Part shown: piece by piece, positions 24,512 to 47,069 of the stretch
Numbering within the stretch: position 1 is the stretch's first letter
Layout: each line of letters starts with the position of its first letter
DNA from: Eledone cirrhosa
Taxonomy: Eukaryota
DNA: 64,000 bases
Direction of reading: 5' to 3'
Assembly (NCBI GenBank): GCA_964016885.1
Contig: OZ024740.1
Coordinates: 110,546,001 to 110,610,000, forward strand
Notes under the pieces: model-generated
Databases searched by the model: none
What the model was told of the DNA's origin: nothing
The model's input: the letters and a program-made list of their open reading frames with translations, nothing else
Translations under genes and position numbers: made by a program

Positions 24512-27500
24512 GCGCGGGGACATAGAAATAATCGGGCTGGATGCCCGATCGCGCAGTTAAACCACTGGGAGTGAAGAACGCCTAGCCCTTGTCAGGGCAT
24601 TCTTCTAGGAGAAGGCATCTCAAGAAACTGGGTTAACTCCCACATAAAACCTGCGGCTCAGTAGTTACCGATGATGTTGATCTTTTCTTCTTTTCGGGTT
24701 ATAGCTACTGTCGCTCAGAGAGTGGGATTGGCTCAGTGCACAGTCTTTCCTCACTTTAAAAAATATTCGTCACGCACAGGCATTGCACGAGTGCATTAAT
24801 AATTATTAATAGTGTACCATTAAATGAAATCATTATTATTATTATTATTACTATTATTATTACTTTTTTTTATTTTCCAATTCAATGATGTTCCAGAACA
24901 ATATAAAAGAGATAATTGGCAATTTAGGTTCTGGAACAAAAAAGATCATTGGCAATAAGGGCAGGGGCCCCAGGTTATCACAGCCTGGGCCCGCTCGTCT
25001 TCATGCCATTATAATAGAGCCAAACAAGGCATTTAGTCTTGGCTGCTGGAACGTACGGACGCTGCTTGACAGGGATTCCTTGGGACGTCCTCAACGAAGG
25101 ACCACTCTTGTTGCAAAGGAGCTTCGACGTTACGATCTTGACATCGTGGCTTTATCTGAGACGAGGTTAGCTGGAGATGGTCATCTTACGGAATTTTGTG
25201 GAGAATATACATTCTTTTGGAAAGGAAGAGATGAAGGAACCAGAAGAGAGGCTGGGGTAGGATTTGCTGTTAAGACTGTGCTTGTGAACACATTAGAGGA
25301 ATTCCCAGTAGGGATTAGTGAGCGTCTTATGTCCATGAGAGTTCCGCTGAACAAGGGAAGATATGCTACCCTGGTGAGTGTGTATGCTCCAACTATGAGT
25401 TCTGTCGATGAGGAAAAGGTGTCCTTTTACCATGCCTTGAAAGGTGTTTTAAGAAATATCCCTCAGGCAGACAAAGTCATCGTGCTTGGTGACTTTAATG
25501 CTAGAGTGGGTAGGGATTTTAACACATGGAATGTAATCGGAAGGCATGGGTGGGAAAGTGTAACAGCAATGGTATGCTCCTGCTGCAGATGTGTGAGGAG
25601 CTGGATCTGTGTGTTACCAACACCATGTTCCAACAAAAGATCAAATTCAAGACCACATGGATGCATCCTGCATCTAAGGAATGGCATCTTTTGGACTACG
25701 TCCTAGTCAGGATGCGTGACAGACAGGATGTGCAGTGTGTTCGTGTTCTTCGTGGAGCTGAGTGCTGGACGGACCACCGCCTGGTACGCGCAAAAGTGAA
25801 ACTAATCACTAAATGTAAAATTCGGCCTCCTGGTGTTGTCCTGCCCAAAAGATTGAATGCTGCTCGTCTTAAGGATAAAAATGTGAAGAGGACATTGGAA
25901 GAAGAGATGCAGGCTGCAGATCTTGGTGAGGATTGGCCGACCCTTAAAAAGTCGGTTTATGATGTAGGCAGGCGTGTTCTGGGATTGGCGCAGAGGAAAC
26001 ATCAGGACTGGTTTGATGAGAATGATGTACATATAGAAGACTTGTTGGCTGATAAGAAGCGTGCTCTGTCACGCTACTTGACGGCAAAACCACAGGAGAG
26101 GATTACGTTGCATGAGGAACTCAGGGATGTAAAATCACGTGTTAGGCGGAGTCTTTCTCAGATGAAGGATCAGTGGTGGAGTGAGAAGGCTGGTGAGATA
26201 CAAACTGCGTCTGATTCCAATAACACAAAGCTGTTGTACAGTCTCTTGCGTGAGGTTTATGGACCGTCTTCTTCTCTGGTGACACCGCTTCGCAGCAAGG
26301 ATGGCAAAGAACTTCTTCGTGACTCACAAGGAATTCTACGAAGGTGGCGAGAGCACTTTGATGATCTTTTGAATCAGCCGTCTATCGTCAGTGAAGATTT
26401 CCTCAATCTCATTCCAGAAAGTCCTGTGAAAGTAACTCTCGCAAAACCTCCGACGCTTGTGGAGGTTGCAGTGGCTATTTCGAAGCTGAACAGTGGAAGA
26501 TCTCCAGGTATGGATGGCATACATGCTGAGCTCCTACAATATAGTGGTGAGAGACTCCTGCAACATCTTCACTCTTTGTTTGGCAGGATATGGGCTAACG
26601 AATCCGTACCTGAGGACTTGAGAGATGCAGTAATGGTGGTCTTGTACAAGGGAAAGGGTAACAGGAACGATTGTGGGAACTACAGAGGTATATCATTGCT
26701 TTCTGTCGTAGGGAAAGTTTTATGTAGGGTGCTTCTGGACCGTCTGCTGACACACATTGCAGATTGTGTTCTTCCTGAAAGTCAATCTGGTTTTCGTGCT
26801 GGACGCGGCACTACTGATATGATCTTCTCAGCTAGACAGCTCCAGGAGAAGTGCATGGAACAAGGCTTGGATCTGTATCAGGTTTTTGTCGATCTGACAA
26901 AAGCTTTCGATACTGTTAACAGAGATGCAATATGGAAGGTTCACCAGAAACTTGGTTGCCCTGATAAGTTCCTTGCTTTAGTTAGGTTTTTCCATGACGA
27001 CATGAAGGCTTGGGTTAATGTCGGGGGTAACATGTCGGAGCCTATCTCAGTAAAAAATGGAGTGAAACAGGGGGATATTCCAGCACCGACCCTGTTTGCC
27101 ATATACTTTGTAATGGTTTTCTGTATTGCATTCAGGAAATGCAAGCAAGGTGTTTACATCCGATATCGAACCTCAGGCAGCATATTTAACATCAGGCGCT
27201 TTGCTGCGAAGACAAGAGTATTTACATCAATCATAAGAGACCTCTTGTATGCAGATGATTGCGATCTTGTAGCGCACACAGAGAGAGATATGCAGCACAT
27301 TTTGAATACATTTTCTGATGCTTGCACTGCCCTAGGTCTGACTGTCAGTCTCAAGAAAACCGTCGTCATGTACCAACCTGCCCCTGGTAAGCAGTACACT
27401 GAACCAAACATCTATGCGTATGGCAAACGACTTGGAGTGGTTGATCAGTTTGTCTACCTGGGAAGCACTGTCAATCGATACAGCAACCTTGACAGTGAAA

Positions 27501-28436
27501 TCTCACTTAGGATTAGGAAAGCAAGTGATGTTTTCGGAAAGCTAGAAAGGTGACTCTGGGGTCGGCGAGATATATGCAGGAGGACAAAGGTAAAGGTGTA
27601 CAGGGCATGTGTGCTCCCTTGTCTTCTTTATGCCTGCGAGACCTGGGTCACATATCGACACCACCTTAAGCAATTGGAGCGTTTCCATCAGATGTGTCTC
27701 AGACGGATCCATGGCGTTCACTGGAGGGACCACATCAGTGATGTCGAGATTTTGGAAGGCTCTATGTGTGACAGTATAGAAGCTCTTGTGCTTAAGCAAC
27801 GACTCCGTTGGAGTGGTCACCTTGCCAGGATGAAGGATTCTAGAATACCAAAACAACTCTTTTATGGAGAGTTGGTTAAAGGAAAACGACCGCCGCATAA
27901 ACCAAAAAAGAAGTATAAGTGTTCCTTGAAAGCCTCTCTGAAAGACGCTAACATCTCTGCTGATACATGGGAGAATATTGCTCCTGATCGTAATAAATGG
28001 AGAAAGACTGTATATGAGGGAAAAGTTGCCTTTGAGGCATCTCGAATCGCATACGAGAAAGTAAAGCGGGATGTGAGGAAGGGCATTGCTGTTGCACTTC
28101 CAGACGGCGAGGGTCCTCCTATGGTGCTGACATGCAGCGTGTGTGCGAGACTCTGCCTAAGCAAAGCTGGACTCGAAAGTCATCTTCGCAGTCATAAAGT
28201 AAGACCAGTGGTTGACTACCAGGCTGCTGTTGGAGATGCTACTCATCATGCTTGCTAAACATGTGGTAGAGAATGTAAATCAGCAGGAGGGCTCAAGCGA
28301 CATGCAAAAGTACACGAACTCCAACCACAGCCGACTATTCCCTGTGAATGTTTTGGTTGCCGACTCTGTGCAAGACATTTTAGATCACTGGCTGGGCTAA
28401 AAAGCCACATTCGATCGTAAGCGCTGTTAGTTGCTA

Positions 28437-43580: not shown

Positions 43581-43735
43581 TATTGTTATACATTGGGAGG
43601 GTCATGTTGCCAATAAGAAACACACGCACCAGTTGTTTCACTTCAATTTATTAAAAAATTAAATTTATAAATTTAGGAATTTATAAATTTCCGGTTGTTT
43701 GGTTGGTTCCACAACCAGACGATTGTTCATATATT

Positions 43736-43778
43736 GTCAAAGTTCTTTCGTCACACATCCTGTGACCTCTTCAGTGAC
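43736..43778 (-). ncRNA. Minimal hammerhead ribozyme motif, left arm of the palindrome
   Basis: Minus: GTCA CTGAAGA G GTCACA GGATG TGTGAC GAAA GAAC TT TGAC. Confidence 0.75.
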
Positions 43779-43896
43779 TGGGGATTCTTTTTTTGTTTTT
43801 GTGCCTCTCCTTTGTTCTGTCCTACGCCATCTTGTTTTTCAAGATGGCGTAGGACAGAACAAGGGAGAGGCACAAAAACAAAGAAAAGAATCCCCA

Positions 43897-43939
43897 GTCA
43901 CTGAAGAGGTCAAAGAATGTGTGACGAAAGAACTTTGAC
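43897..43939 (+). ncRNA. Minimal hammerhead ribozyme motif, right arm of the palindrome
   Basis: GTCA CTGAAGA GGTCAAAGAATGTGTGAC GAAA GAAC TT TGAC. Confidence 0.72.
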
Positions 43940-44166
43940 AATATATGAACAATCGTCTGGTTGTGGAACCAACCAAACAACCGGAAATTTATAAATTTAA
44001 TTTATAATAAATTGAAGTGAAAGCAACTGGTGCGTGTGTTTCTTATTGACAACATGACCCTCCCAAAGTATAACAATACGAGTATCAACACACGTTTTCA
44101 GATAAAGAATCTTGCTAAACAAATTCAGAAACGAAATATATATATATATATACAAATATATATGCA

Positions 44167-45632: not shown

Positions 45633-46248
45633 TTTATGTGTATTTGGTGTATACGTTCGTATGTGTGCGGGTACTGGCGTGGCGTCGGTTCTGTATGTGC
45701 GTGTGTGTTTTTTGTGTACGTGCTTGTTTTTGCATACCCATGGCGAGTGTTTCCGCGTATGCTTGTGTATGTACGTATATGGATGCGTGTTTGTATATAT
45801 TTAATTTCAATTACCGCTGTATTTTATTTACTTTATTCTTAACTCTGAAGCCGAGAATCATTAGGTTTCCTAAATAGAATTTTAGTCTACAACTTCAGTT
45901 ATACCACTTACGTGGTTTTGTATTTGCGTGTAATTGTTTTCACCGGTCCAAATAATGACGTATTATCTTCGTTTGTTCCGTTCTTTGCCAGAGAAAGTTT
46001 CCATGAACCAATTATCGTCTTCCTGTCTTCCTTCTGTTGCAACGTTTTTTGAAATATTTACTTCTGCGTTCACAGATTGACTTCTTTAGTTTCAGAAGAT
46101 TCCGTTAAGGGTGAAAGCAGCGATTTTTTGCTTAAACTTTAATCTGTTATTTTAATAAATATTTGCTCTGCGGTTCTTATATATTTGATATATATTTATC
46201 CTTACCGAGCCCTCTTCGAATTTTAGTCTTCAAATTTATTATTATTAC

Positions 46249-46279
<31 letters not shown>

Positions 46280-46425
46280 TTTTAGTATATGTTGGTTGTA
46301 TACCAACACCTCACTATGCAGATGGAGCACTCGACGAAGTGCGAAGGTTGGTTTGGTTACTCCAGAGTAATGTTAAATAAACTAAAATAAATAAGTCAAA
46401 TATTTAAAATTTGGCTTCGTTTATT

Positions 46426-46480
46426 ATTGCTATATATATTTCGGTGACAGCCATCTTTGGCTGTGACCTCTTCAGGCAGT
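46426..46480 (-). ncRNA. Type I hammerhead ribozyme motif, left arm
   Basis: Minus: ACTGC CTGAAGA GGTCACAGCCA AAGA TGGCTGTCACC GAAA TATATA TA GCAAT. Confidence 0.85.
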
Positions 46481-46700
46481 CCGAATTAGTGTGGTAGAGA
46501 CGAGTGCACATGTTGTTGAGGTGTTTAACTTTGTCAATAATCTGATATGCCCAGTTCCTGGTTGGGTTGTTATTTCACTGAGGAACTGGAATCATATCCT
46601 CAGTGAAATAACAACCCAACCAGGAACTGGGCATATCAGATTATTGACAAAGTTAAACACCTCAACAACATGTGCACTCGTCTCTACCACACTAATTCGG

Positions 46701-46755
46701 ACTGCCTGAAGAGGTCACAGCCAAAGATGGCTGTCACCGAAATATATATAGCAGT
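46701..46755 (+). ncRNA. Type I hammerhead ribozyme motif, right arm
   Basis: ACTGC CTGAAGA GGTCACAGCCA AAGA TGGCTGTCACC GAAA TATATA TA GCAGT; perfect stem I and G-C closing stem II. Confidence 0.9.
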
Positions 46756-46801
46756 AATAAACGAAGCTAAATTTTAAATATTTGACTTATTTATTTTAGT
46801 T

Positions 46802-46858
<57 letters not shown>

Positions 46859-46885
46859 GAAAGTGAACAACACAATATATAACTA

Positions 46886-46952
46886 CTCCATTACCAAAGG
46901 TTTCAGGACCCTAGACAATATTAATATACGTTTAGTTTCTCATCAGATAGAG
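46886..46952 (-). ncRNA. Type I hammerhead ribozyme motif
   Basis: Minus: CTCTAT CTGATGA [imperfect stem II] GAAA CC TTT GG TA ATGGAG. Confidence 0.72.
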
Positions 46953-47069
46953 GGGTTATCGCTTTCTAATTAAATAGCTCTGTTTTATATATAGAACACT
47001 CCCTTTTTCCTATATATATATATATATCACCACTCCCCCTCACACCCTCGGAACTCTTTTCCTTCACAC

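Follow-up and report, generated by a model that had tools for sequence, protein, structure and literature searches.

The locus at positions 46280–46806 of the window (the whole 64,000-nucleotide stretch of Eledone cirrhosa DNA analysed here) is one 5′-truncated insertion of a Hydra-clade Penelope-like retroelement (PLE) in a (TA)n tract, consisting of two head-to-head, hammerhead-bearing terminal repeats (pLTRs), one of which is tailed. From the sequence of this and sister copies, we lean towards an origin by twin priming from a fixed pair of start sites on a single RNA, which would leave a truncated PLE with a single tailed arm. The palindrome is ordinary, since everything about it has been published for PLEs: pLTRs placed head to head, a tail on one side, hammerheads and (TA)n as the target. 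The family is new, but its kind and architecture are already known.

Layout of the locus and identity of the family

A 432-bp near-perfect palindrome had been described here in an earlier note made from the sequence alone, and that description is borne out: the 210-bp arms (46375–46584 and 46597–46806) are separated by 12 nt and differ at two pairs of positions (46427/46754 and 46413/46768). The locus is larger than the palindrome and asymmetric, reaching about 46280 at the left, where the left arm is longer by about 92 nt of family tail, absent from the right arm (Table 1). Family copies terminate at one of two discrete positions, sites A and B, which are about 92 nt from each other; here the outer end of the left arm (about 46280) is at B and that of the right arm at A. 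In full-length copies, the tail leads into the ORF, whose ATG follows after about 60 nt. What had been taken as a 12-nt loop is 5′ family sequence of the longer left arm, and the arms meet at a junction with a 1-nt overlap. At 46578–46608 the junction gives a chance CUGANGA...GAAA core with a long stem II and no stem I or III, which is probably meaningless. Further high-copy repeats in TA tracts surround the element (46040–46243 and 46855–47030), and reads connect 46162 to 47011 across the TA, probably originating from other copies of a host repeat.

Table 1. Features of the insertion and its target, in window coordinates
Feature	Position	Strand	Reference positions
Left arm, 5′-truncated and tailed pLTR of a Hydra-clade PLE; bounded by site B (outer) and the family 5′-end hotspot (inner)	46280..46597	-	296-615
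Tail, about 92 nt, between end sites A and B	46280..46374	-	
Left-arm hammerhead; stem I disrupted by the 46427 variant, core preserved	46426..46480	-	
Apparent loop, extra left-arm 5′ sequence; includes most of a natural 8-nt palindrome and overlaps the right arm by 1 nt	46585..46597	-	
Right arm, 5′-truncated pLTR without tail, outer end at site A	46597..46806	+	309-523
Type I hammerhead, predicted cleavage after 46750	46701..46755	+	
(TA)n target, left side	46243..46279	.	
(TA)n target, right side	46807..46854	.	

The arm is a dispersed repeat, with 48 matches among the 40 scored of 1,401 candidates, and a 25-mer from the hammerhead has 3,252 exact matches in the genome, against 0 for a control. 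The host genome (3.0 Gb) is microsatellite-rich, and repeat finding in the window was dominated by microsatellites. The first 100 25-mer matches listed included 11 head-to-head pairs within about 4 kb and one tail-to-tail pair, and an inverted partner was present for 53 of 100 arms in a second position-ordered sample; the position-ordered samples cover one chromosome and use exact-match anchors. A tail-to-tail pair in L028 (1000–1719), with both arms tailed around a TA tract with short tail-end repeats, is probably a re-insertion into the same tract.

Copies elsewhere link the arms to a RT-GIY-YIG ORF, and it is this known retroelement that the earlier note missed. L075 contains, in order, a tailed arm, the inversion junction, a truncated RT-GIY-YIG ORF, a 3′ UTR and an untailed pLTR, while L112 and L113 have open ORFs of 891–892 aa that begin about 60 nt past the tail; such ORF-bearing sister copies are about 88% alike in the terminal repeat. 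The ORF protein has RWK, DKT, YRDD, CxCx5C, CxxC..E and CxH motifs and no DKG (in L113, RWK is at 37, DKT at 120, CxCx5C at 752, CxxC at 850 and CxH at 878). The endonuclease CxxC and CxH flank a conserved E and N, and CCHH is absent from the printed C-terminus as judged by eye. Pfam gave no RT or GIY-YIG family match for the ORFs, and the assignment as an EN+ PLE therefore rests on the motifs and on homologues, the two species-named of which are both octopod. RWK, DKT, CxCx5C, CxxC and CxH define the Hydra clade (PMC8557442). As in EN+ PLEs, pLTR copies of the family are inverted and/or in partial tandem and often 5′-truncated, and one end is extended by the tail of about 92 nt; as in the Hydra clade, insertion is into (TA)n, with 203 of 215 A or B outer ends within 30 nt of (TA)4. 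On sequence grounds, the arms are thus the pLTR of a Hydra-clade PLE with a contiguous single RT-GIY-YIG ORF.

The likeness to the Hydra clade (PMC8557442) extends to the C-terminal GIY-YIG, all five motifs, the lack of CCHH, the (TA)n target and a hammerhead near the 3′ end. One of its members, Penelope-13_HM, has a 5′-truncated inverted copy with a hammerhead on each strand (PMC8557442). The Eledone family differs in its longer unit, about 4.2 kb compared with less than 3 kb for the families listed there, in its 892-aa protein with a low-complexity insert, in a repeated 3′ UTR, in a tail of about 92 rather than 30–40 nt, and in a hammerhead unlike that of Hydra-1_oBim (PMC8557442).

End sites, inner ends and the origin of the inverted pair

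Tails follow a strict rule in head-to-head pairs. The pooled, deduplicated set of 104 adjacencies, which includes score-selected loci and counts the near-duplicate L213, comprises 93 A+B, 0 A+A and 2 apparent B+B combinations, with 9 not scorable. Position-sampled adjacencies, with overlapping or duplicated loci dropped, were A+B in 34 of 37 (3 not scorable), and a second set gave 35 of 43 (7 not scorable, one weak spurious match). L107 and L116, at first scored as B+B exceptions, have full-length arms that end at A when traced through the ORF, and the A+A exception L289 was a short weak match, gone at a stricter E-value. No true exception to the rule of one tailed arm was seen among the 104 adjacencies. 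A ends (62) and B ends (57) occur with nearly equal frequency, so that A+B would be expected in half of the pairs if the ends were independent. The same head-to-head arrangement with a single tail is seen in two further families of the window.

In LINE-1 twin priming, the two target strands prime on one RNA, which leads to a 5′ inversion and a join through microhomology; the position of the second priming site is variable there, and the two parts lack any overlap. The Eledone family differs in that neither site varies and overlap between the arms is usual. For PLEs generally, we see an even chance that programmed twin priming, from A and from B of the same RNA, leaves exactly one tail per inverted insertion. 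The RT-endonuclease, probably a dimer, would cut both (TA)n strands, after which one target 3′ end would prime at site B, the end of the tail, and the other at site A, 92 nt upstream of B. Both cDNAs would extend toward the RNA 5′ end, here with run-off at the likely transcript start, and their 3′ ends would be joined through microhomology, with the hammerheads riding along as passengers of the terminal repeat. Short palindromes would then be two run-off 5′-leader cDNAs joined head to head, a proposal for which we judge the odds to be balanced. Priming of one RNA at A and B would account for the one-tail rule, the shared alleles, the correlated inner ends and the junction overlaps.

A PLE protein from another clade than Hydra, Anolis Poseidon PAc, has in vitro properties that resemble this scheme: it is a predicted dimer, it cuts and extends both strands, and reverse transcription starts at two sites bracketing the tail (PMC11167929). 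An AT-rich target and a hammerhead immediately upstream of the ORF start are also shared, but the two sites are not, in the portion of that paper available, tied to the two arms of inverted insertions (PMC11167929). A search of the open-access literature gave no account of twin priming in Penelope, and the mechanism of tandem and inverted PLE insertion is stated to be an open question in PMC8557442.

The inner ends cluster. Among 169 truncated arms, 59 start within 11 nt around a natural 8-nt palindrome, compared with 3 and 5 at control TA sites, and a CCAAT box is located about 50 nt upstream of this hotspot. We infer that the hotspot is the transcript start, in which case the window arms would be run-off cDNAs of the RNA leader. 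Alternatively, it may be a pause or annealing site. Some full-length arms continue upstream of it (L106, L107 and L109), such that not every template starts there. TA microhomology was rejected as the cause of the hotspot; a TA run lies upstream in 9 of the 59 arms.

Four properties of the pairs bear on how the arms were joined. First, of 65 close pairs, 37 have an untailed arm that extends further inward than the tailed one, 20 show the opposite, and in 8 the two are equal, counts that are blurred by early stops. At nine distinct loci, a short tail-only arm barely overlaps its partner (12 listed, minus the full-length arms L105 and L113 and the duplicate L213). Second, partner arms in 64 pairs share 33 rare alleles, where 2.0 would be expected with a random arm and 5.8 with near neighbours; the window arms have two in common, and 262 of 295 rare alleles are confined to one arm. 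Third, inner ends are correlated outside the hotspot, with a median difference of 29 versus 60 nt (P=0.002, n=28 pairs). Finally, 26 of 30 clean junctions have microhomology, with a mean of 2.4 against a null of 0.69 nt, the former inflated by tolerated alleles and calculated without the 37 of 67 junctions that have unexplained bases under a strict rule, many from point mutations.

The closest competitor, which we regard as unlikely although deserving of serious weight, places the same PLE insertion under self-priming, i.e., fold-back of antisense RNA or cDNA with later endonuclease trimming at A, following a published view of inverted PLE copies (PMC3846280, PMC8557442). Small loops, the microhomology at clean junctions, the correlated inner ends, the shared alleles and perfect fold-backs at the natural 8-nt palindrome (L265 and L291) all agree with it, and correlated inner ends and microhomology are indeed compatible with fold-back and twin priming alike. 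A target-primed fold-back, however, needs a longer first arm that contains the second. Simple cDNA fold-back is disfavoured because the tail cannot fall on the shorter arm, yet the untailed arm is the longer in 37 of 65 pairs. Tail-only arms would in addition demand loops of more than 200 nt secured by 1–2 nt, and the one-tail rule requires the additional trimming step. The inverted pLTR Penelope of Adineta vaga, for which antisense-RNA self-priming was proposed, shares the head-to-head pLTRs, a 3′ tail on one of them and junction palindromes; for that element the tail is called "optional", whereas one tail per pair is here a counted rule, and several of our counts oppose a simple fold-back (PMC3846280).

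Doubtful, and less probable than self-priming, is that the dimer copies two separate RNAs during the same PLE insertion, one per target strand and starting at A and B, respectively. Overlapping arms would then need no strand displacement, and the predominance of arm-specific rare alleles would be expected. Two independent RNAs are disfavoured because they would not share alleles or stop together, as the excess of shared rare alleles (33 vs 5.8) and the correlated inner ends indicate that partners do; nor would anything enforce one A plus one B. Twin priming has its own difficulties. For the arms to overlap, the leading cDNA would have to be displaced by the trailing RT, and in only 7 of 52 pairs does each arm have its partner as its closest copy. 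As a whole, we infer that the counts fit twin priming better than the published self-priming idea.

Hammerheads and similarity of the arms

A canonical hammerhead had been claimed for each arm. The claim holds for the right arm on the plus strand, while the left arm, on the minus strand, has the hammerhead without its 5-bp stem I. The right-arm type I hammerhead has a 5-bp stem I, the CUGAAGA/GAAA core and an 11-position stem II with one mismatch; its stem III is short, TA-palindromic and absent from the predicted fold. In the left arm, the mismatch at 46427 is a C-A pair within stem I, which is missing from the predicted fold, and the hammerhead descriptor that matches the right arm finds no match. 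Rfam gave no hammerhead match on the right arm and, on the window, below-threshold microRNA-like hairpins alone among the 150 of 272 matches listed. The ribozyme call is therefore based on the descriptor match and on the hammerheads published for PLEs. pLTR hammerheads have a palindromic helix III and are poorly active as monomers (PMC4209133). The palindrome has two hammerheads because it contains the PLE terminal repeat twice, once as each arm; in this repeat the type I hammerhead is sense to the ORF, and the 5-bp stem I and core are retained in 163 of 206 arms.

Hammerhead cleavage was considered as a source of 5′ truncation and rejected: none of 100 arms anchored downstream of the cleavage site starts at it, so there is no genomic sign of cleaved templates. 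This is consistent with the dispensability of PLE cleavage in vitro reported in PMC11167929.

The near identity of the arms had been attributed to recent formation or to homogenisation. Recent formation is plausible, given an arm divergence of 1.0% compared with a mean of 2.9% over 52 pairs, and together with the two shared rare alleles this divergence fits a young insertion from a single template. Family-wide homogenisation finds no support: most rare alleles are restricted to one arm, and pairs with spacers of 2.4–7 kb are as alike or more so (L112, L195 and L206) and can be identical. Conversion may still have occurred at this single locus.

It is very improbable that the locus is a distinct double-hammerhead hairpin, either retrozyme-like or a host-functional RNA, with its symmetry held by homogenisation. 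The 99% identity of the arms and a predicted fold of −405.8 kcal/mol for the whole locus would suit such an element, but the arms are the terminal repeats of a PLE with an ORF, copies differ in where they are inverted, the left stem I is broken and the rare alleles are mostly arm-specific. A read-through transcript would, according to the fold model, make one long hairpin burying both predicted ribozymes. The reads mapped to the locus are mostly from other copies, and neither a read nor a contig spans it, which would accord with an assembly artefact from a read fold-back chimera; that possibility is negligible in view of flanks that differ by side, two differences between the arms, a tail on one arm alone, and some 90 further loci that share this layout.

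Other families in the window and significance

The earlier proposal that several families share a mechanism gains support, the palindromes at 43.8 kb and 40.2 kb being other dispersed families with the same head-to-head, one-tail layout. The first (43581–44135) belongs to another hammerhead family; its right arm, but not its left, has a tail, of 57 nt. Among 30 loci of this family selected by the tail, 15 inverted partners end at the untailed site, and one distant partner (L311) is tailed. The second (39961–40887) represents a third family, whose non-coding unit of about 525 nt has a hammerhead-like core near 40697 and frequently forms direct tandems, of as many as about six units in L329. Its two end sites, separated by 111 nt, are each used once per inverted pair; it is a retrozyme-like non-autonomous PLE.

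Non-LTR retrozymes also have a type I hammerhead related to PLE pLTRs and, in the available part of the source, are direct tandem non-coding units (bioRxiv 10.64898/2026.07.22.740005), whereas the present locus is an inverted, truncated copy of an ORF family. It was rejected as a non-LTR retrozyme, since its arms are inverted and ORF-linked.

Other retroelement sequences also occur in the window. A 5′-truncated RT-GIY-YIG fragment at 36169–37155 is another PLE, with 33% identity to the L113 ORF over the C-terminal part. A relaxed scan gave further hammerhead-like cores at 10004(−), 12419(−), 13758(+), 14200(−), 42840(+), 44721(−) and 51324(−), likely the ends of other PLE families. A LINE fragment with AP-endonuclease and RT in several frames, which we take to be RTE-like, is found at 24828–28258, and a short palindrome with 45-bp arms at 35586–35716.

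The locus is one of probably hundreds that are similar, and no special function is needed to explain it. As a warning for annotation, palindromes rich in hammerheads, where they occur in microsatellite-rich genomes of animals, are the ends of PLEs and should be mistaken neither for microRNA hairpins nor for new RNA elements. With thousands of young copies, a strict one-tail rule and open full-length ORFs, the Eledone family makes models of the mechanism distinguishable, and twin priming, fold-back and copying of two RNAs can be separated by genome-wide counts and an existing in vitro assay.
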